Shown here one piece after another: positions 3,470 to 28,983 of a DNA stretch of 38,341 bases. How positions within the stretch are numbered: the stretch's first letter is position 1; the number at the start of each line of letters is the position of its first letter. The notes under the pieces were generated by a model. That model saw only the letters and a list, made by a program, of their open reading frames with translations. It made no database searches and was not told the origin of the DNA. The stretch comes from a virus. The translations under genes were made by a program, and so were the position numbers. Location of the stretch: the UHGV virus genome UHGV-0133281. The stretch is one strand, 5' to 3'.

Positions 3470-3811
3470 CTACTTATTTTTCTTCTCCAAATACGCTTCA
3501 ATAATGCCTGACAAAATTTCTCTATCATTTTCAGTCAGCGGTTTTCCGTCACTACTCATAACAGATGATAAAGCTTCTTCGACTGTTAGTTGATTTTTGT
3601 CGACTGGATTGGGGTTTTCAGTTCTACCAAGTAAATAGTCTACAGACACGTTAAAATAGTCAGCTAATTCTTTTAATTTTTCAGCCGATGGCTGTTTGCC
3701 ACTTTTTAGACTATAGAAATAGTTTTCACTATATCCTAAATCTAATGTTACTTGTTTCATAGTTTTTGATCGATTTTTTGCAAGTGTTTTGACACGTTCA
3801 AATACTGTCAT
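3470..3811 (-). CDS. XRE-family HTH transcriptional repressor (cI-like)
   Basis: N-terminal HTH_XRE (KTLAKNRSKTMKQVTLDLGYSENYFYSLKSG). Divergent from the cro-like gene across an operator-rich intergenic region. Confidence 0.85.
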   Translation of the reverse strand: MTVFERVKTLAKNRSKTMKQVTLDLGYSENYFYSLKSGKQPSAEKLKELADYFNVSVDYLLGRTENPNPVDKNQLTVEEALSSVMSSDGKPLTENDREILSGIIEAYLEKKNK

Positions 3812-3877
3812 ATCAGCATTCTCCTTAAATTCTTACAAAAAACAATAAAAAAGTGTAGTTTTTTATTTACAAATACA

Positions 3878-3889
3878 ACACTATAGTGT
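3878..3889. promoter_or_regulatory. Operator-like 12-bp palindrome ACACTATAGTGT, copy 1. A partial half-site AGTGTAG lies at 3852-3858.
   Basis: Perfect palindrome in the cI/cro divergent intergenic region. A second copy is at 4014-4029. Confidence 0.6.
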
Positions 3890-4013
3890 ATATTGTTCTT
3901 GTAAGTTAATTGGATAGAAAAAAGCAAACTAAAAACACACCTTATAGCATTAAGTTTGGCGACCGAGTGCATAATAAAGGTTTTGTTATAGGCTTATTTC
4001 GTATGTCTATATA

Positions 4014-4303: not shown

Positions 4304-4633
4304 ATGACGCAACTGATAGAATCAAAAATTTCAATTGAGATACCGTCTAATTTGATTCTGATTGAAAAGGCAAAGATTTTAGAATTAGAAAATCAAACCT
4401 TAATTGGTCAGACGTGGAATGCAAAAGATGTTACTAACCGCCTAGGTGGGAAAGATATACGTGACTGGAAACTCGTTTTCTATAAATATCGCGAAGAGGT
4501 AGATTTAAGAAACGGCGGATTCGTAAAGTTCCCAACTAGTAAAGGGATGCCTTGGAAGTTTCATGCTAAGATGACCGCTCATTTTATAGATATTCATTGG
4601 AAAGAATTCATGGAGACGAAAGATCGTTTTTAA
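4304..4633 (+). CDS. Hypothetical early protein (possible DNA-binding or excisionase-like)
   Basis: 109 aa ORF with RBS, tightly packed after the cro-like gene. Confidence 0.45.
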   Translation: MTQLIESKISIEIPSNLILIEKAKILELENQTLIGQTWNAKDVTNRLGGKDIRDWKLVFYKYREEVDLRNGGFVKFPTSKGMPWKFHAKMTAHFIDIHWKEFMETKDRF

Positions 4634-13888: not shown

Positions 13889-13962
13889 TGGCGTGTAGCT
13901 CAATTGGTGAGAGCGGTTGATTTTTAATCAAGTAAATGCAGGTTCGACTCCTGTCACGCCAA
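13889..13962 (+). tRNA. tRNA-Lys (anticodon UUU)
   Basis: Manual cloverleaf. Acceptor TGGCGTG/CACGCCA. D-arm GCTC-AATTGGTGA-GAGC. Anticodon arm GTTGA-TTTTTAA-TCAAG with one G:G at positions 27:43. T-arm GCAGG-TTCGACT-CCTGT. Discriminator A. No CCA encoded. Confidence 0.7.
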
Positions 13963-19765: not shown

Positions 19766-20911
19766 ATGACAATCAATTTAAAAGGAATGGTCAATTACCA
19801 AGAAAAGCGTAAAGCTTTTATTGCATCTGTAAAAAATGGTGATCCACAGGAAAAACAAAATGAATTATATGAAGTATCTATGAATGCTCTAGCAGAAGAC
19901 ATGGTAGCAGAGGCTAAAAAAGAAGCTCGTATGGAAGCAGAAGAATTTATCAATGCTTCAAAAATGGATAAAGGCATTACGCCCAAAGAAGTTAAATTCT
20001 TTAACGCGGTCACTGAAACAGGCTGGAAAGATGAAGAACTACTTCCTGAAACAACAGTGGATGAAATTTTTAATGATTTAACAAGAGAACGTCCATTATT
20101 AAAAGAATTAGGATTAAAATATACAGGATTACGATTGAAAATCTTAAAATCTGATCCAAAAGGTGCCATTGTTTGGGGTAAAATTTTCGGCGAAATTAAA
20201 GGTCAGTTAGATGCAACCTTCAGCGAAGACGATGCAAAACAAAGCAAAGCAACAGCATTTGTTGTATTACCAAACGATCTATTAGAATATGGTCCTGTTT
20301 GGATTAAACGTTATGTAACTACTCAAATTAAAGAGGCATTTGCTGTTGGCTTCGAAGATGCTTTCCTAAATGGCGATGGAAACGATAAGCCTATTGGTTT
20401 AACTCGTGACTTAGCAAAGGGAGCTACTTCAAACGGTGTGACTACTTATCCAGAGAAAGAAGCAGCAGGAACTTTAACTTTTGCCGATGAAAAAACAGCG
20501 ATTAAAGAATTAAAAGAAATGCGTAAATACCATTCTGTTAAAGAAAATGGCAAACGTATTTCTGTCGCTGGTAAAGTAGTTATTGTTGCGAGCCCAGATG
20601 AAGCTTTGGATATTGAAACAGAGTTTACTTCTCGTAATGCAATGGGGGACTGGGTTACGAAATTACCGTTTGGATTGCGGATTGTGGAATCTGATTTCCA
20701 AAAATCTGGAAAAGTTACCACTTTTGTTAGTGGTCGTTACGATGCATTTGCTGCAGGAGCATTAGTGATTAAAGAATACGATCAAACATTAGCTTTAGAA
20801 GATTGTCGGTTATTCACTGCAAAACAATTTGCGTTTGGTAAAGCACAAGACAACAAGGTTGCAGCTGTATGGACATTATCAATTAATGGAGACCCAGAGA
20901 CGGGGAAGTAG
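19766..20911 (+). CDS. Major capsid protein (HK97 fold). A -1-frame C-terminal extension is open to 20973.
   Basis: 381 aa following the protease with an N-terminal delta-like region. Extension frame ..GEVAIPVIEKVTSTTDGAVVNLK*. Confidence 0.85.
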   Translation: MTINLKGMVNYQEKRKAFIASVKNGDPQEKQNELYEVSMNALAEDMVAEAKKEARMEAEEFINASKMDKGITPKEVKFFNAVTETGWKDEELLPETTVDEIFNDLTRERPLLKELGLKYTGLRLKILKSDPKGAIVWGKIFGEIKGQLDATFSEDDAKQSKATAFVVLPNDLLEYGPVWIKRYVTTQIKEAFAVGFEDAFLNGDGNDKPIGLTRDLAKGATSNGVTTYPEKEAAGTLTFADEKTAIKELKEMRKYHSVKENGKRISVAGKVVIVASPDEALDIETEFTSRNAMGDWVTKLPFGLRIVESDFQKSGKVTTFVSGRYDAFAAGALVIKEYDQTLALEDCRLFTAKQFAFGKAQDNKVAAVWTLSINGDPETGK

Positions 20912-20988
20912 CAATCCCCGTGATTGAAAAAGTCACGTCAACAACAGACGGGGCTGTTGTAAATCTGAAATAACAGGGGAGGTATTCA

Positions 20989-22044: not shown

Positions 22045-22436
22045 AAGATATGATGATGGAAGTTTACAATGCCTTGATTGAAAATGAAACAATTAAAGAG
22101 CTTGTGACACCTCAAAGAATTAAATTTTATGAAGTACCAGAAACTTTGGATACTACCAAGCCTTTCATTATCATTGATAACTTTTTTGGTCCACAAACCA
22201 ACGCTTATTTTGCCAACAATAAAGCTTTATCAATTAGGTTTAATTATCAAATCAACGTTGAGAGCATGGATAGAATGACAACTAAGCAAATTTCTAAAGC
22301 AGTTGAAGAAACAATGAAACAAATTGGTTTTGGTCGCTTAGATGGTGGCTTAGATCAGTACTTTAACGAAACAAAACGTTTTGTAGATGCAAGACGTTAC
22401 AGAAAAAATACACAAATTCACGACACCGACTATTAA
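22041..22436 (+). CDS. Tail completion or tail terminator protein
   Basis: 131 aa. Position before the major tail protein. Confidence 0.5.
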   Translation: MKDMMMEVYNALIENETIKELVTPQRIKFYEVPETLDTTKPFIIIDNFFGPQTNAYFANNKALSIRFNYQINVESMDRMTTKQISKAVEETMKQIGFGRLDGGLDQYFNETKRFVDARRYRKNTQIHDTDY

Positions 22437-22468
22437 GTTGGTGTCTATTTTTTAGGAGGAAAAAATTT

Positions 22469-23062
22469 ATGCAAACATACGGATTTAGCAGAATCACTAT
22501 TCAACAATTGGACAATGAATTAAAGCCAGTCGCTGGTAAGAAACATGTCATTGATGGCAAGCCAAAAGAAGGGGCCGCAGCAAGCTTTGAAATTACAGGA
22601 CTAACCAAAGAACCGTCAAAAGTTTTCGGTTCAAACATTGCATATTACGTTGCACGTAAAGGGCACGGAGATATTGCAGCAAACTTAGGTATCTTAGATG
22701 TACCATCAGCCATTGAACATGAAATGTTAGGGCATAAAAAAGCTAGCGAGGAAAGCAAAGTTTATCATATTGGCGAGGATACAGAGCCACCTTACTACGC
22801 AGTATTAATCGAATCAGAAGATTTATATGGTGAAAAAATTGGCTTCGGCATGTATGCAGGCACATTCTCATTAGATGGTGTCAAAGGCGAAACATTAAAT
22901 GATGACGACTTTACGCCAGAGCCTGGCGAATATGTTTATTCTGCTGTTTCTCGTCAAATTAACGGTAAAAAAGTTACTGTCGGTTTTGCAGATAATTCAG
23001 AAGCTCTAGCAGAATTGACAACAGAATTATTTGGTGAAGAAACACCAGCGCCGGAAAAGTAG
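22469..23062 (+). CDS. Major tail protein. A -1-frame C-terminal extension is open to 23124.
   Basis: 197 aa. Position. Extension frame ..GKVASPTVGAVTPTTDGANIELS*. Confidence 0.75.
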   Translation: MQTYGFSRITIQQLDNELKPVAGKKHVIDGKPKEGAAASFEITGLTKEPSKVFGSNIAYYVARKGHGDIAANLGILDVPSAIEHEMLGHKKASEESKVYHIGEDTEPPYYAVLIESEDLYGEKIGFGMYAGTFSLDGVKGETLNDDDFTPEPGEYVYSAVSRQINGKKVTVGFADNSEALAELTTELFGEETPAPEK

Positions 23063-23135
23063 CAAGCCCCACAGTGGGAGCTGTTACTCCCACCACAGAT
23101 GGGGCCAATATTGAATTAAGTTAGGAGGACAAGAA

Positions 23136-23609
23136 ATGTCGTTTATTCCACCAGAAAAATTTAGACTTTATAAAAAAGGTGAAACTAGTCCTGTTGCAGA
23201 AGGTATTTCGCCTTTAGCTATTACAGGAATTACCGCAAACACAGATGTTTTAGCTGGTGACTTTACTGTCACAGGTGTTGCCACCGTTGACGGTGAAGAA
23301 AAAGAATCTGATCATGTTGATGTACCAGCATTTAAAACATTACCTATTGCAGTAACAGGAATTACCTTGGATAAGACTGAATTAGCTTTAAAAGTTGGTG
23401 AAACAGCAACGTTAACACCTACAATCATGCCAGAAAACGCAACAAACAAAGCGTATAGATTCAGTTCTGAAGATGCAGCGATTGGAACGGTAACGCCAGT
23501 GCAAGGAAAAGTAACAGGCGTTTCGGAAGGTATTACAAAACTTGTTGGCACAACTGAAGACGGTAATTTTACAGCAGAATGTACTTTGACTGTATCAGCA
23601 GCAGAATAA
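23136..23609 (+). CDS. Ig-like (Big_2) domain tail protein
   Basis: Big_2-like repeats (ITGITLDKTELALKVGETATLT...GTVTPV...ITKLVGTTEDG). Confidence 0.65.
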   Translation: MSFIPPEKFRLYKKGETSPVAEGISPLAITGITANTDVLAGDFTVTGVATVDGEEKESDHVDVPAFKTLPIAVTGITLDKTELALKVGETATLTPTIMPENATNKAYRFSSEDAAIGTVTPVQGKVTGVSEGITKLVGTTEDGNFTAECTLTVSAAE

Positions 23610-23632
23610 AAATTTATTGATTAAGGACGGCT

Positions 23633-23662
23633 TTAGTTAGTCGTCCTTTTTTTGGAGGTTAA
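23633..23662 (+). terminator. Intra-operon rho-independent terminator or attenuator
   Basis: AGGACG-(12 nt loop)-CGTCCT followed by TTTTTTT. Confidence 0.6.
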
Positions 23663-23665
23663 AAA

Positions 23666-24013
23666 ATGGAACGTAAAATTGAACTAACTTTACGCATTGA
23701 TGGCGAAGAAAAAACTTTTACACAGGACTTTGTGCCGTTTTCTAAGCGTACAGACTATATAAAAAAAGAAAATTCACTTAGAGAAGAAAAAACAAGCGAA
23801 GGATTAGAACCAACAGCTGACGAGTATTTAGAAATGCAAATTCAATTCGTCGCCGATTTATTCGATGAAAAGGAACTTACTAAAGAAGCAATTCTTAACG
23901 GTATTGATGCTTTAGACATTGATAAAATATGGGAAATTATCAGCTATCGAGTTCTTGGTCTATCTAAGACAGATGTGGAAGAGTCAAAAAAGGAAAAGGC
24001 GGAGGAAATCTAA
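23666..24013 (+). CDS. Tail assembly chaperone (gpG-like)
   Basis: 115 aa, acidic, immediately upstream of the TMP. The slippery A AAA AAG lies near its end. Confidence 0.75.
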   Translation: MERKIELTLRIDGEEKTFTQDFVPFSKRTDYIKKENSLREEKTSEGLEPTADEYLEMQIQFVADLFDEKELTKEAILNGIDALDIDKIWEIISYRVLGLSKTDVEESKKEKAEEI

Positions 24014-24234: not shown

Positions 24235-27200
24235 ATGAGTGGTGGAACGCCGTTAGGAAATATGGTCATTAAGTTGGGCTTGGATAGTTCTGATTTCGGT
24301 CGTGGTGCAGCAAATGCTAAAAAAGAAGTCCGTTATTTAGCCAAAGAAATGCAAGCTAATGCAAAAATCGCTGATATGGCGGGCAATCAAATGGGCAAGC
24401 TTGGCACTCGTTTTGATGGTTTAACTAAAATCATTGGAGCACAAGAGAAACAAGTTGCTGCGCTGAAAAAAGCTTATGACGAATCTTTTGTAGATGGAAA
24501 AGCGACAGAATCCACCAAAAGGCTAGCAACTCAATTGCAAGATGCCAATGGAAAACTAGCAAATTATCGATCTCAATTAATTCAAACAGCTGGTCAGATG
24601 GCAGAAATGCAAGTCAAAACCACTGGTGCCACTGGCGCCATTTATAATGCCAGCGAAAAAATGATTTCTAGTGGGCAAAAAATGGAAAAAGTGGGCGGAG
24701 CTTTAACAAAAGGTATAACTTTGCCAATTCTTGCTGGGGCTGCAGCAGTAACAACGGCCGCTGTGAAATGGGAATCTGATTTTGCAGGTGTGAAAAAGAC
24801 CAATGATGAAGTTGTGGATTCGACAGGTAAGGTTGTTTACTCATACAAAGATTTAGAAAATGGTCTTCGTGGACTAGCCAAAGAATTACCTTCAAGTCAC
24901 ACGGAAATTGCAAACGTTGCAGAAGCAGCAGGGCAGTTAGGGATTAAAACTAAAAATGTAGTTGGCTTCACCAAGACAATGATTGACTTAGGCGAGTCAA
25001 CGAACATGAGCGCAGAAGAAGCAGCAACTGCTTTAGCTCGATTGGCCAACATTACAGGAATGCCACAAACGGAATTTGACAAGTTAGGTTCTGTGATTGT
25101 TGATTTAGGGAATAACTTTGCGACAACCGAGTCAGAAATAACCGCAATGGGATTACGTCTTGCTGGTGCTGGTCACCAAGTGGGAATGAGTGAAGCTCAA
25201 ATCATGGGATTTGCGGCTGCATTGAGTTCGGTTGGTATTGAAGCAGAAGCAGGCGGTTCTGCATTTTCTAAAGTGATGGTTGAAATGCAATTGGCTGTAG
25301 AAAATGGAGCCAATGCATTTGCAGGGTTAGAGAGTTTAAGCCAACAAACTGGTGTATCTATGGAACAGGTTTCTAGCGCTGTTAGAAATGGCGGTAAAGA
25401 GTTAAAAAACACTGCTGATGCAATGGGATTAACTAGCAAAGAATTAAAAACAATGCATAAAGAAGCCACCGATGCATCAGGAAAATTAAATGATTTTGCA
25501 GAAGTAGCTGGAATGTCTGCAGAACAATTTTCTAAAGCTTTCAAAGAGGATGCTTCAGGTGCTATTATCAAATTTATTGAAGGGCTAGGAAAAACGAAGG
25601 AACACGGACAATCTGCAATTGCTGTTTTAGATGATATGGGGATTACCGAAGTTCGTCTTCGTGACAGTTTGCTACGTGCAGCTGGTGCCAGTGATGTATT
25701 TAAAAGTGCTGTAGATCGTGGAACTAAAGCATGGGGAGAAAACACCGCTTTAACAGAGGAAGCTAACAAGCGATATGAAACTACTGAATCTCAATTAAAG
25801 ATGCTTAAAAATGAAGCGGTTGACGTAGGTATCACGTTTGGTGGTCCTTTAGTAAAAGCATTGAGAGATGCGCTTCAAGCAACTAAACCAATGATTAAAA
25901 TGGTTACGAATTTGGCGGAATCTTTCTCAAATGCTGATCCTAAAACGCAACAAACAATCGTGAAATTGTTAGCTTTTGCAGCAGTAACGGGTCCAGTTAC
26001 TAGCAAAGTAGGAACGTTAACAAAAACTATGGGCCATTTAGGTAAAGGATTCATTGATACAATGGCTGCTATGTCTAAGAAAAGAGCGATTGAAGATGTT
26101 ACAAAAGCTTTTGCAGAAGGTAGCTCTGTTTCTCTTGGATTCGGAAAAGACATTGCTTCTTCTGGTTCGGCATTAGGCGGATTAACAGCTAAAATTGGAG
26201 GAACCACAACACAAATTGGTTCATTGACTAAAGGATTTAGTTTATTGAATCCTTGGGTATTGGGCGCAACTGCAGCGATTGGTGCAGGCGTTGCGGTTTG
26301 GAAATTGTGGGGAGAAGAAGCCTGGAATAGTTCTCAACGGACACAAAGATGGGGAACTGATGTAGGAAAAGCAACTGATGAAGCCTTAACTAAATTTCAA
26401 GGATATAGCAGAGGCGCTAGCGGAGAGCTTGATTTGCTAGAAAAAGGCGTTTCTGGGAATACCGATACCATTGCTAATAATTTCTCTAAGATGGGTCAAT
26501 CAATCGAAGAAAATATGACGAAAAAGATTGAGACACTGAAAGGCATTGTTAATAAGTTGCCAGATGATATAAAAGAAGCTGGAGATAAGCTAACCAAAGA
26601 AGAAGTGCTCAATCAGGAAAAATATTTAGATGTAGTGAAAGAAAATAATCAAAAAATAACTCAAATTAAACAAGAAGCTTCAAACAATAACCGCAAAATA
26701 AGTTATGAAGAAGCGATAAGAATTAAATCATTAGCTAAAGAAAGCGCAGAAGCTTATGTTAATTCTTTAGGTAAAAGCGAAACTGAAACCAAAGAAATTT
26801 TATCTGCAATGACAGGAAATGTAGCAGAAGCATCAGAAGATCAAGCAAAAACGTGGCTGCAATCTTTAGGAAAGCAAAGGCAACAATCCAAAATAGAATA
26901 TACTAAGATGCAGGACGATTTGAAAGCAAAATTAGTAGATGCCGGTTATGATTTAAACAGTAAATATGCCAAAGAAATGCTATCCTTATTAAAAGAAAGT
27001 GGCGATAGTGCCACGCAGATTACAGAAGATCAGATGTCAACTATTCTAGCCAAATATCCAGAATTGGCTGATCAAGTATTTTTAGCCAATGGACAATTAA
27101 TTAGTTCAATGGGTGAAGCTGGTCAAGCGGCAGTTGGTCAAAATAAAAAAATGATGGATTCCTTCACCGATATGGCAGAAAAAGTATCAAAAACTGCCGG

Positions 27201-28983
27201 AGAAAACGCAAAAAAAATAGAACTTATTGCAGATGAAGCAAATGAGTTTGGCGAATTCTGGAATCAATTAATCTTAGATACGAAAACAGGTGAAGTCAAA
27301 ACAAATGCGCAAGAAGCAGTTAATGAAGCTGCAAGCTCTGAAAAAGGTTGGAATCAACTTATTTATGCTTCTAAAAACGCAGATTTAAAGAGTAATGCTA
27401 AGTTGATGATTGCAGAAGCTGCCATCGCTAATGGACGTTGGGAAAAAATGACGTTTACCGAACAACAAGCTTTGTTAGATAGTAACGTTACAAAAACAAT
27501 GACACAAGCATTGCAAGCAAAAGGCAGCTGGGGTAAATTGAATTTTGAAGAGAAAAAAGCTGTTCTTTATTCAAATACACCAGAAGTAATGGCTGAAACA
27601 ATGCTTAATTTAGGGTTGTGGAAAGACTATCAGCCACAAGTTAAAGAATTAAAAGCTAAAAATCAATCTTTTCTTGATGTGTTAAGTCAATCTCAAGATA
27701 AAATTGTACACTGGTCGCAAGTTCCAGTAGATATAAAGGAAATTCTTGGTGATAATTACGATTTACTCTCAAAAATATATGGATCAGAACAATCATATAA
27801 CCGTTGGAAAAATTTACCAGATACAGAGAAAAAACTTCTAGCTAATAATTCTGATGTACTACAAAAGATTATGACTTCTGATACTAGTTTAAAACAATGG
27901 AATGCCTTGCCAGCTGATCAGAAAAAAATGCTTGGAGACAATACCGACTTATTAACAAAAGTTATGGCATCGGAAGAAAGCTTTAACGCTTGGAAGGCGT
28001 TACCCGATCCAGTAAAAAAAATGTTAGGTAATAACGAAGATTTAAAAGCTAAGATAGCAGAAGGTAGTTTGAGTGTTGAAACTTACAATCAAGTTAAGCC
28101 ACTTCTAAAACAATTATTAGGAGATGCTTCCAATGTATCAAATCAATCACAGGTAGGTATTCAAAACTTAAATGCATTTAACGCGAACAATCCAGCACAG
28201 AAAATACTACGTGGAGATTCTTCAAATGCGCAAGCTGCAGCTCGACAAGGTGGCAATGCATTGAATACCTACAATGCCAACAATCCAGGAACGAAAAACC
28301 TGCGAGGAAATGCAGGTGGAGTTGTCGGTGCGGCTTCAAGTGGTAATAGTAGCTTAAATATTTTCGCAGCAAACAATCCAGTTGAAAAACTATTAAGGGC
28401 TAATGATCAAGCGAGTGGCCCAGCATCTCAAGCGAAAAATGCAGTAAGTGACTTTAATTCTGGCCCTTCGGTAATTACCAAAACTTTAAACGTAGTAGCT
28501 AATTTAGGTGCTGGCGTAGCAAAAATTTTAGGACTAGAAACAGGAACCAATAATCATATTGGTGGTCCGGCAATCGTCAATGACCAAAAAGGACGTACTT
28601 ATAAAGAATTGGTTATTCCAAAAGGCGGTGTTCCTTTCATTCCAGAAGGTAGAAATGTATTCTTACCAGATTTACCAAAAGGATCAAAAGTAATCAAAGC
28701 TTCAGAAACAAAGAAACTAATTCCTCATTATGAAAACGGCGTGGGAGTTCCGAGAAACTCTTCAGTTGTTAAAAATCTAATTGCTGTTCAAGATTCACAT
28801 GAATCGAATGACTTTAGCGAACTTGCTTCTCTAATGCGTGAAATGGTTTCTTACTTGAAAGATGGAAATATTAAAAACATGGAAGTAACACAATATATCA
28901 CAGGTGCTGACACGAAAACACCGAGAGAGACGGCGATGGAAACAAAACGCCAACTTCGTGACTTGGCTAGGGGGTTTAAATAG
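24235..28983 (+). CDS. Tape measure protein
   Basis: 1582 aa. Coiled-coil and helical repeats. Internal tandem repeats of about 33 aa, and NANNP..LRG repeats near the C-terminus. Confidence 0.9.
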   Translation: MSGGTPLGNMVIKLGLDSSDFGRGAANAKKEVRYLAKEMQANAKIADMAGNQMGKLGTRFDGLTKIIGAQEKQVAALKKAYDESFVDGKATESTKRLATQLQDANGKLANYRSQLIQTAGQMAEMQVKTTGATGAIYNASEKMISSGQKMEKVGGALTKGITLPILAGAAAVTTAAVKWESDFAGVKKTNDEVVDSTGKVVYSYKDLENGLRGLAKELPSSHTEIANVAEAAGQLGIKTKNVVGFTKTMIDLGESTNMSAEEAATALARLANITGMPQTEFDKLGSVIVDLGNNFATTESEITAMGLRLAGAGHQVGMSEAQIMGFAAALSSVGIEAEAGGSAFSKVMVEMQLAVENGANAFAGLESLSQQTGVSMEQVSSAVRNGGKELKNTADAMGLTSKELKTMHKEATDASGKLNDFAEVAGMSAEQFSKAFKEDASGAIIKFIEGLGKTKEHGQSAIAVLDDMGITEVRLRDSLLRAAGASDVFKSAVDRGTKAWGENTALTEEANKRYETTESQLKMLKNEAVDVGITFGGPLVKALRDALQATKPMIKMVTNLAESFSNADPKTQQTIVKLLAFAAVTGPVTSKVGTLTKTMGHLGKGFIDTMAAMSKKRAIEDVTKAFAEGSSVSLGFGKDIASSGSALGGLTAKIGGTTTQIGSLTKGFSLLNPWVLGATAAIGAGVAVWKLWGEEAWNSSQRTQRWGTDVGKATDEALTKFQGYSRGASGELDLLEKGVSGNTDTIANNFSKMGQSIEENMTKKIETLKGIVNKLPDDIKEAGDKLTKEEVLNQEKYLDVVKENNQKITQIKQEASNNNRKISYEEAIRIKSLAKESAEAYVNSLGKSETETKEILSAMTGNVAEASEDQAKTWLQSLGKQRQQSKIEYTKMQDDLKAKLVDAGYDLNSKYAKEMLSLLKESGDSATQITEDQMSTILAKYPELADQVFLANGQLISSMGEAGQAAVGQNKKMMDSFTDMAEKVSKTAGENAKKIELIADEANEFGEFWNQLILDTKTGEVKTNAQEAVNEAASSEKGWNQLIYASKNADLKSNAKLMIAEAAIANGRWEKMTFTEQQALLDSNVTKTMTQALQAKGSWGKLNFEEKKAVLYSNTPEVMAETMLNLGLWKDYQPQVKELKAKNQSFLDVLSQSQDKIVHWSQVPVDIKEILGDNYDLLSKIYGSEQSYNRWKNLPDTEKKLLANNSDVLQKIMTSDTSLKQWNALPADQKKMLGDNTDLLTKVMASEESFNAWKALPDPVKKMLGNNEDLKAKIAEGSLSVETYNQVKPLLKQLLGDASNVSNQSQVGIQNLNAFNANNPAQKILRGDSSNAQAAARQGGNALNTYNANNPGTKNLRGNAGGVVGAASSGNSSLNIFAANNPVEKLLRANDQASGPASQAKNAVSDFNSGPSVITKTLNVVANLGAGVAKILGLETGTNNHIGGPAIVNDQKGRTYKELVIPKGGVPFIPEGRNVFLPDLPKGSKVIKASETKKLIPHYENGVGVPRNSSVVKNLIAVQDSHESNDFSELASLMREMVSYLKDGNIKNMEVTQYITGADTKTPRETAMETKRQLRDLARGFK

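Follow-up and report, generated by a model that had tools for sequence, protein, structure and literature searches.

What could be the purpose of a short reading frame that leaves a phage structural gene at its last codons, one base out of register, and closes just ahead of the next gene? This question is raised by the 3' end of the major tail protein (MTP) gene in a 38,341-nucleotide stretch of viral DNA (UHGV virus genome UHGV-0133281, one strand read 5' to 3'; hereafter the window), in a region that is the structural module of an Enterococcus siphophage and whose nearest public match is a 2.2-kb fragment of IME_EF3 with 96.7% identity. Our analyses suggest that a fraction of ribosomes shift frame at the ends of both the MTP gene and the major capsid gene, and that the homologous peptide added in each case (here called the tag) corresponds to the first two strands, A and B, of a fibronectin type III (FN3)-like domain, the rest of which begins a separate protein (the partner protein) encoded directly downstream of the MTP gene. 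On balance, we lean towards viewing this arrangement as a natural split-FN3 "tag and catcher" used by many Firmicute phages (Enterococcus, Staphylococcus, Brochothrix), in which -1 or +1 recoding would equip a fixed share of the capsid and tail-tube subunits with an A-B hairpin, and a protein starting at strand C would snap on and display its Ig-like domains on head and tail; partners that themselves end in the tag could form head-to-tail chains.

A first-pass annotation of the sequence had described an MTP gene whose 0 frame ends in A-AAG-TAG and a -1 frame that runs past this stop to a TAG at 23122-23124. Both are correct: the gene ends CCG GAA AAG TAG, and the -1 frame reads GKVASPTVGAVTPTTDGANIELS up to that TAG. 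The same annotation had this frame open from 22996, which is not the case, as translation of 22996-23124 gives FRSSSRIDNRIIW, a stop (TGA at 23035-23037) and then RNTSAGKV and onwards. The open stretch therefore spans 23038-23121, and any shift is confined to 23038-23059. The capsid gene ends ACG GGG AAG TAG, and its -1 frame reads (G)EVAIPVIEKVTSTTDGAVVNLK up to a TAA at 20971-20973. The cassette said to be common to the two 3' ends proved to be the 14-nt sequence AAGTAGCAAKCCCC. The window contains it at just two positions, 20906-20919 (capsid) and 23057-23070 (tail), with no occurrence expected from 100 shuffles. We estimate that 21 open codons beyond a stop are not rare in AT-rich DNA. The significance of the extension lies in the similarity between the capsid and tail peptides, their conservation across relatives and the pattern of variation over codon positions.

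Conservation of the extension frame in relatives was one of the points on which the earlier proposal had agreed to stand or fall, and the extension is retained in all MTP relatives with at least 86% identity in IMG/VR. In the relative L043, the tag differs from that of the window at 13 codons, seven of which are synonymous in the -1 frame and six conservative, and the 0-frame stop is shifted five codons downstream. A tag profile built from 24 peptides was run on 149 loci translated in six frames, against the last 40 residues of every segment between two stops, and gave 253 matches, every one on the coding strand. Exactly two matches, one capsid and one tail, were present in 117 of the 136 tag-bearing loci, and the 13 loci without a match are distant MTP relatives that also lack a Big_2 gene. 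Relative to the frame of the structural gene, 241 matches lie in the -1 frame (the L120 site is also a -1 site), four in the +1 frame at a CCC_stop and four in frame; the distinct tag cassettes number 72. Moreover, capsid and tail tags show an identity of 0.58 within a genome compared to 0.375 between genomes, which was reached in 0 of 10000 permutations.

The coding signature of the extension was assessed in 23 divergent cassettes of equal length. Entropy at the three codon positions of the -1 frame is 0.85, 0.79 and 1.52, placing the variation at third positions, and the synonymous fraction of single-base codon differences is 0.71 in the -1 frame, compared to 0.20 in the 0 frame and 0.06 in the +1 frame. 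Stops interrupt none of the 23 sequences in the -1 frame, 22 in the 0 frame and all 23 in the +1 frame. Judging from these codon patterns, the -1 frame is under purifying selection. In addition, one and the same tag peptide is reached via -1 sites, via +1 CCC_stop sites (SANTOR1, Staphylococcus SpP, L069, L212 and L213) and in frame (phiEf11, L126). We consider it very likely that the tag is translated. Read-through of the TAG in the 0 frame was also considered and rejected, the continuation being unconserved (QAPQWELL and onwards for the tail, QSP followed by a stop for the capsid) and running into early stops in 22 of the 23 cassettes.

In L149 (phiEf11, 4400-4479), L130 and L126 (about 3690-3752), the MTP and its tail tag share one reading frame. 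PhiEf11 reads CCA GAA AAA GTA where its relatives read CCG GGA AAG TAG, and every subunit would then be tagged, provided that the additional base does not stem from a sequencing error in a homopolymer.

In all cassettes the recoding site coincides with the last one or two sense codons. The -1 sites are of the types G_GGA_AAG, G_GGA_AAA, G_GGA_AAC, G_GGG_GAG, G_GGG_AAG (the window capsid gene), G_GAA_AAG (the window tail gene), C_CCA_AAA and A_AAA_AAA, and the +1 sites are CCC_TAA or CCC_TAG. Compared with the X_XXY_YYZ pattern, each of the two window sites is one base away from G_GGA_AAG. Six near-identical relatives (L026 type) read GCG CCG GGA AAG TAG, that is, the canonical G_GGA_AAG in place of the G_GAA_AAG of the window with the rest identical, and canonical G_GGA_AAG/A/C, C_CCA_AAA or A_AAA_AAA sites are present in these and many other relatives. 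Together with the 72 cassettes, the selection on the -1 frame and the hairpin described below, these slip-prone motifs strongly support the proposal of a programmed -1 frameshift at the MTP 3' end and of its capsid equivalent. The more specific suggestion was that a P-site tRNA-Lys slips while a stop codon occupies the A site. A stop in the A site is common but not required, because in L043 the stop follows five codons later and because one further sense codon follows the C_CCA_AAA and A_AAA_AAA sites. A slip of the P-site tRNA-Lys alone and tandem slippage are indistinguishable here, and both yield the same protein.

The putative frameshift-stimulating hairpin of the tail gene has a minimum free energy (MFE) of -22.1 kcal/mol (z -3.2) and is separated from the slip site by 6 nt, within the stem-loop spacing of about 5-9 nt. 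Similar hairpins, which start about 6 nt past the site, are found in most of 31 non-redundant cassettes, and that of the L043 tail gene includes the compensatory pairing GUAGG/CCUAC. In the common register of 23 cassettes, 63% of cells are paired, compared to 32-45% with the partner columns slid. The covariation score was matched by 8 of 500 shuffles, and one wobble-position pair occurs as six pair types. We regard this covariation as moderate support for the predicted hairpin, since the stems are built from the codons of the tag itself (Pro, Val-Val-Gly, Pro-Thr-Thr and Asp-Gly).

A phage tRNA-Lys(UUU) gene at 13889-13962 (+), between the early and the packaging genes, was examined as a possible "shifty" tRNA and rejected: relatives with an identical slip site hold tRNA-Trp, tRNA-Arg, tRNA-Ser or no tRNA in this slot. 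Across relatives (L157-L210), the slot is occupied mostly by Trp(CCA), by Arg(UCU) or not at all. The "Ser(CGA)" tRNA of L167 is a Trp scaffold with one anticodon base changed, and in L171 and L197 an extra T in the Lys scaffold creates an 8-nt anticodon loop. The prophage contig that carries L171 also carries L017, in which a CAA codon of the capsid gene has become TAA (about 1940-1945), 15 codons 5' of the usual stop and just upstream of the slip site; its presence beside the tRNA-Lys variant may be a coincidence or reflect a defective prophage. About 5 kb 5' of the distant MTP relatives in L202, L203 and L205, ARAGORN reports tRNA-like genes whose anticodons have four bases (gata, aata).

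The likely role of the tag emerges from the partner protein. A profile search returned at least 359 partner homologs, which share a 65-residue N-terminal module with the rough pattern M..F[RK]IYKG...SPL.ITGL..NT.V..G.Y......ES.KVD[VI]PAFKT, while their C-terminal parts vary, with a single or double Big_2 domain, different Ig-like domains or low-complexity sequence, or are missing. In the best 120 of the 359 homologs, the match covers at most 77% of a chimera of tag and partner and stops short of the tag region, and none of these has an N-terminal tag in frame. Most of the small representative partner proteins match from residue 1-5. By sequence comparison, these best-matching members share one starting point, which corresponds to strand C of an FN3-like domain; two members of 89 aa are named fibronectin type III domain-containing proteins by NCBI.

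Several observations suggest that tag and module are two pieces of one domain. In phmmer searches (E 1e-4 to 1e-10), the module aligns with the tandem FN3 repeats found in large proteins of cellular origin, in which "GFKIYR" forms strand C and is preceded by "P.AP.NL....T.NSATLTW". Furthermore, the two pieces are found on a single chain in the multi-domain proteins P0173, P0190 and P0198, where a tag-like segment such as PPTVESVTPTDTTASIEM stands 11-18 residues before an internal module copy; the first module copy of P0173 begins at strand C. We also modeled the tag fused to the window partner with AlphaFold2 (AF2), using an alignment of the window chimera and natural partner proteins that covered the partner part only. 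The predicted structure has a mean predicted local distance difference test (pLDDT) score of 95.2 and consists of a sandwich of strands A, B, C, C', E, F and G followed by Big_2. The tag contributes strands E7-14 and E17-23, with pLDDT values of 86, 97 and 82 per 10-residue block, and the modeled seven-strand sandwich can be superposed on FN3 structures. The same chimera modeled without an alignment gave a pLDDT of 38 and was uninformative. In Pfam searches a Staphylococcus chimera matches Big_6 across the junction of tag and module, where the module alone matches nothing. A profile of chimeras run against PDB sequences gave only weak matches (E 0.5-1), with fibronectin chains making up four of the six, besides one chitinase and one phage structural protein. 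Sequence and model together support the assignment of the tag as the two missing strands, A and B, of the FN3-like domain with which the partner protein begins. At 21 aa and two strands, the window extension is short of a complete Ig-like or FN3 domain, and a whole-domain version was seen only in the L064 capsid gene. The first-pass annotation had noted that the Big_2 gene immediately follows the MTP gene and had suggested that the long form is a decorated tail-tube subunit. The gene order is as described, but the extension itself provides just two beta-strands, and the Ig-like protein is the product of a separate gene.

The distribution of tag and module is consistent with such a pairing. Among MTP homologs, the partner gene is present in 45 of 45 loci with a tag and absent from 13 of 13 without, and tag and module are also found together beside unrelated capsid and tail families, in L060, phiEf11, SANTOR1, Brochothrix BtpYZU02, the Staphylococcus phages SpP and TPWB-09, and two Staphylococcus prophages. 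These two prophages are the only ones confirmed in a scan of a genome collection, and the host range given here therefore rests on matches in phages and IMG/VR. The partner gene may follow either the tail gene or the capsid gene, and the tag is found on both structural genes in either case; in nearly all relatives the extension ends 4-17 nt 5' of the partner start codon. A module-only homolog of 7.0 kDa has been detected by mass spectrometry, with 94% coverage, in virions of the Efquatrovirus vB_EfaS-271 (PMC7503890).

Variants of this arrangement are numerous. In L064, the -1 frame of the capsid gene (2623-2885) encodes a whole Big_2 domain in the classical arrangement, while its tail gene has the short tag, with a module protein encoded behind it. 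In L121 and L126 (about 3760-3950), a 60-aa module that lacks any Ig domain has a gene of its own, ahead of a second module gene, and gp06 of Efquatrovirus SANTOR1 (73 aa), encoded directly after the capsid gene, is module-only. In the 140-kb Herelleviridae genome of Staphylococcus myovirus UHP46 (L153, 5343-7120), module genes lie among replication genes and are flanked by proteins with in-frame tag-like ends such as PQPPTDVEVTPGEEDAEVGTE. Many partners themselves end in an in-frame tag-like peptide, for example PENVQVETTEDSADVTAE, including those of SpP (L154, 4510-5028), TPWB-09 and L152, as well as P0012, P0115, P0160, P0169 and P0235. P0160 consists of module plus tag only (89 aa), and P0235 has the order [C-G]-[A-B + C-G]-[A-B], a repeat register shifted by two strands. 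The sequences of these tag-ending partners suggest head-to-tail chains, self-closure or circular permutation. In GenBank records (SANTOR1, phiEf11, BtpYZU02, SpP and many Efquatrovirus genomes), module proteins commonly carry the label "major tail protein" or "tail tube protein", and recoding is marked in none of the four annotated capsid and tail regions we inspected (phiEf11, SANTOR1, BtpYZU02 and SpP).

Based on these results, we propose the following mechanism. Some of the ribosomes that reach the end of the MTP gene would slip by -1 on G_GAA_AAG (23053-23059), aided by the hairpin 6 nt downstream, and read 21 further codons to the TAG at 23122-23124, giving a long form, MTP-L, of 218 aa with the end PAPEK-VASPTVGAVTPTTDGANIELS. 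The equivalent slip on G_GGG_AAG of the capsid gene (20902-20908) would add VAIPVIEKVTSTTDGAVVNLK, and the long capsid protein would contain VAIPVIEK and VTSTTDGAVVNLK. Slippage on both genes is strongly supported by the comparative sequence evidence. The added peptide would form strands A and B, and the protein encoded at 23136-23609 would start exactly at strand C and continue into Big_2; that both belong to the same domain is likewise supported by sequence and model. The partner, separately translated from its own Shine-Dalgarno sequence, could then complete its N-terminal half-domain on the A-B hairpin of the frameshifted subunits, which would anchor Big_2 non-covalently on head and tail, with the efficiency of frameshifting setting the occupancy. 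Partners that end in a tag-like peptide could recruit further copies head to tail. We consider it probable that the Ig-like protein docks by fold complementation on frameshift-tagged subunits in this way.

The peptide could instead act by itself, as an arm to neighboring subunits or as an assembly mark, with the Ig-like protein binding otherwise or not at all. Tsh-L of Listeria phage PSA sets a precedent for this, having a short acidic extension and no partner gene, and the tag is translated under every model, whereas its binding to the partner is what we infer. We nevertheless think an independent role unlikely, as tag and strand-C-first module strictly co-occur beside capsid and tail proteins of unrelated families, follow one another within natural multi-domain proteins and complete a fold that AF2 predicts with high confidence, and as partner proteins often have a tag-like C-terminal end of their own. 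It is also conceivable that the ribosome is recoded once more and passes from the extension into the downstream open reading frame (ORF), which would produce a classical MTP-FN3-Big_2 fusion, as for other Ig-like domains added by frameshifting. The extension adjoins the partner and the two make up one domain, and in L064 the partner ORF is in the frame of the extension with a single TAA between them. However, the capsid extension of the window is followed by a head-tail connector gene and not by a module, tag stop and partner start are offset by differing frames (+1, +2, 0), and every partner comes with a Shine-Dalgarno sequence and a start codon of its own, 4-17 nt further on. SANTOR1 and L119 have the partner behind the capsid gene, and the tail gene 2.5 kb away has the tag alone; the 7-kDa module-only protein detected in vB_EfaS-271 virions is equally hard to reconcile with a fusion, which we regard as very improbable.

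Two further explanations question the translation of the tag or the way in which the frame is changed. A region conserved as RNA only, for instance as a hairpin acting in mRNA stability or translational coupling, with a -1 ORF that is never translated, would account for the stable hairpin with its partial covariation, and the Pro and Asp-Gly codons of the tag do make up the CCCC and GGGG stems. Such a constraint would hardly explain why variation concentrates at third positions of the -1 frame, why 71% of the differences are synonymous and all 23 cassettes stop-free in this frame, including the 3' third of the tag outside the hairpin, or why the +1-type cassettes specify the same peptide through a different RNA and in-frame versions occur as well, and we give it very little credence. 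Long forms might also arise by transcriptional rather than ribosomal slippage, for which the runs of seven A at the site in some relatives (L133, L117) would be suited. The window runs are merely A4 and G4, most sites are two-base heptamers with a positioned hairpin, and CCC_stop is a classical ribosomal +1 site, which leaves transcriptional slippage the faintest prospect.

The docking of the partner on frameshift-tagged subunits has to be weighed against several points. Both slip sites in the window are non-canonical, with a G.U pair remaining after each slip, and the RNA covariation is not only moderate but entangled with coding. The co-occurrence counts are phylogenetically non-independent and come from loci that were collected via the MTP or the partner. 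In AF2, the two pieces were modeled as one covalently fused chain, with the real tag only, and the method may favor completing a sandwich. Moreover, Pfam fn3 (PF00041) matches the module only below threshold, with 12-14 bits compared to a gathering score of 25 and over model positions 42-80 of 84, and the window chimera has no FN3 match, only one to Big_2. For this phage, frameshifting and binding are predictions from sequence and model.

Table 1. Positions in the window of the genes, slip sites, hairpins and extensions discussed in the text.
Feature	Position	Strand	Details
Major capsid protein gene	19766-20911	+	381 aa, stop TAG 20909-20911; PF05065 E 3e-14, phrog_10 E 7e-44
Capsid slip site G_GGG_AAG	20902-20908	+	Identical site in 40+ relatives
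Capsid -1 extension	20908-20973	+	VAIPVIEKVTSTTDGAVVNLK plus TAA; stops just 5' of the Shine-Dalgarno sequence and ATG (20989) of the next gene
Capsid hairpin	20916-20953	+	CCCCGUGA.../...ACGGGG; 3' of slip site; MFE -15.8 kcal/mol, z -2.5
Terminator-like hairpin upstream of MTP gene	22422-22445	+	Consensus scan only
MTP gene	22469-23062	+	0 frame, 197 aa, stop TAG 23060-23062; PF04630 Phage_TTP_1 E 6e-9, phrog_88 E 9e-39
Tail slip site G_GAA_AAG	23053-23059	+	One base off the canonical G_GGA_AAG of near-identical relatives
Tail -1 extension	23059-23124	+	VASPTVGAVTPTTDGANIELS plus TAG (translation); predicted strands A and B of an FN3-like domain
Tail hairpin, putative frameshift stimulator	23066-23105	+	6 nt 3' of slip site; outer stem GCCCC/GGGGC, inner stem GUGGGAG/CUCCCAC
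Shine-Dalgarno sequence AGGAGGA of partner gene	23123-23129	+	Overlaps the stop codon of the tail extension
Partner protein gene	23136-23609	+	157 aa; residues 1 to ~72 predicted FN3-like module from strand C, 72-150 Big_2
Terminator-like hairpin after partner gene	23623-23648	+	Consensus scan only
Tail assembly chaperone gene	23666-24013
Tape measure protein gene	24235-28983

The two terminator-like hairpins listed in Table 1 flank the MTP and partner genes, which suggests a separately tuned transcription unit.

If the proposed mechanism is true, it would assign a docking-tag function to the short frameshift extensions on phage capsid and tail proteins that have been known since the work on Listeria phages, and would account for the mid-domain start of hundreds of small proteins that bear the annotation "major tail protein" or "Ig domain". 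It would also allow one decoration protein to be placed on two unrelated lattices with tunable occupancy, and phage display and engineering would gain a compact peptide/protein pair of natural origin.

Our literature search, with subscription papers outside it, returned nothing on split FN3 domains, strand complementation in phage decoration or capsid and tail frameshifting in Enterococcus phages, and in the literature searched we found no earlier description of a half-FN3 tag shared by capsid and tail with the other half separately encoded. The recoding itself is already known in kind from Listeria phages. In PSA, A118 and A500, cps and tsh have been described as undergoing programmed frameshifting where they end (reviewed in PMC5009743), and "ribosomal slippage" is annotated in AJ312240. 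As in PSA and A500, the major capsid and major tail genes of the window (20902-20973 and 23053-23124) would be recoded over the final codons, so that each protein has two alternative C-terminal ends, and the site types also correspond: the -1 site G_GGA_AAC_stop of A500 cps resembles those of L127 and L120, and the +1 site CCC_stop of tsh those of SANTOR1, SpP and L069. Both types are annotated as "ribosomal slippage" in PSA and are present in A500. However, the sequences added in PSA and A500 show no relation to the tag. Cps of both phages is extended by about 45-55 aa of HeH/SAP-like sequence, Tsh of A500 by an entire Big_2 domain and Tsh of PSA by an acidic 24-mer, and no strand-C-first partner gene was seen in the annotated structural regions of PSA and A500, whereas the window would add one homologous 21-aa peptide to both proteins.

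In Lactobacillus phage A2, the major head and major tail proteins also exist in two forms due to -1 frameshifting (PMC5009743). A2 resembles the phages described here in being a Firmicute siphophage with a -1 shift in both head and tail genes. The A2 site is reportedly a C_CCA_AAA heptamer with a downstream stem-loop, and the L060 site has this same makeup; the A2 extensions are said to be long, about 85 aa on the head protein, and to involve no half-domain with a separate partner.

Whole Ig-like domains are appended to phage structural proteins by frameshifting in T3 10B and SPP1 gp17.1*, and in frame in the C-terminal domain of lambda gpV (PMC5009743). These systems share with ours an Ig-like domain on a subset of capsid or tail-tube subunits, and the L064 capsid gene, with a whole Big_2 in its -1 frame, fits the same description. 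Here, by contrast, the frameshift product would comprise two strands, and the remaining domain and Big_2 are provided on a separate polypeptide.

In chaperone-usher pili and in engineered split-domain tag/catcher pairs, an Ig-like fold that lacks strands is completed by a peptide of another polypeptide. Proteins with the half-domain first and the tag last (P0160, P0235, SpP) could chain head to tail like pilins. However, two strands (A-B) rather than one G strand would be donated, the donor would be made by recoding, and neither a chaperone or usher nor isopeptide chemistry appears to be involved.

Finally, the capsid decoration proteins Hoc of T4 and pb10 of T5 combine an anchoring module with Ig-like domains (PMC10385173, PMC5292684). 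The partner family similarly pairs a conserved, putatively virion-binding N-terminal module with variable C-terminal domains for display. Hoc and pb10 bind the folded capsid lattice, whereas the receptor proposed here would be a frameshift-encoded tag carried by both capsid and tail subunits.

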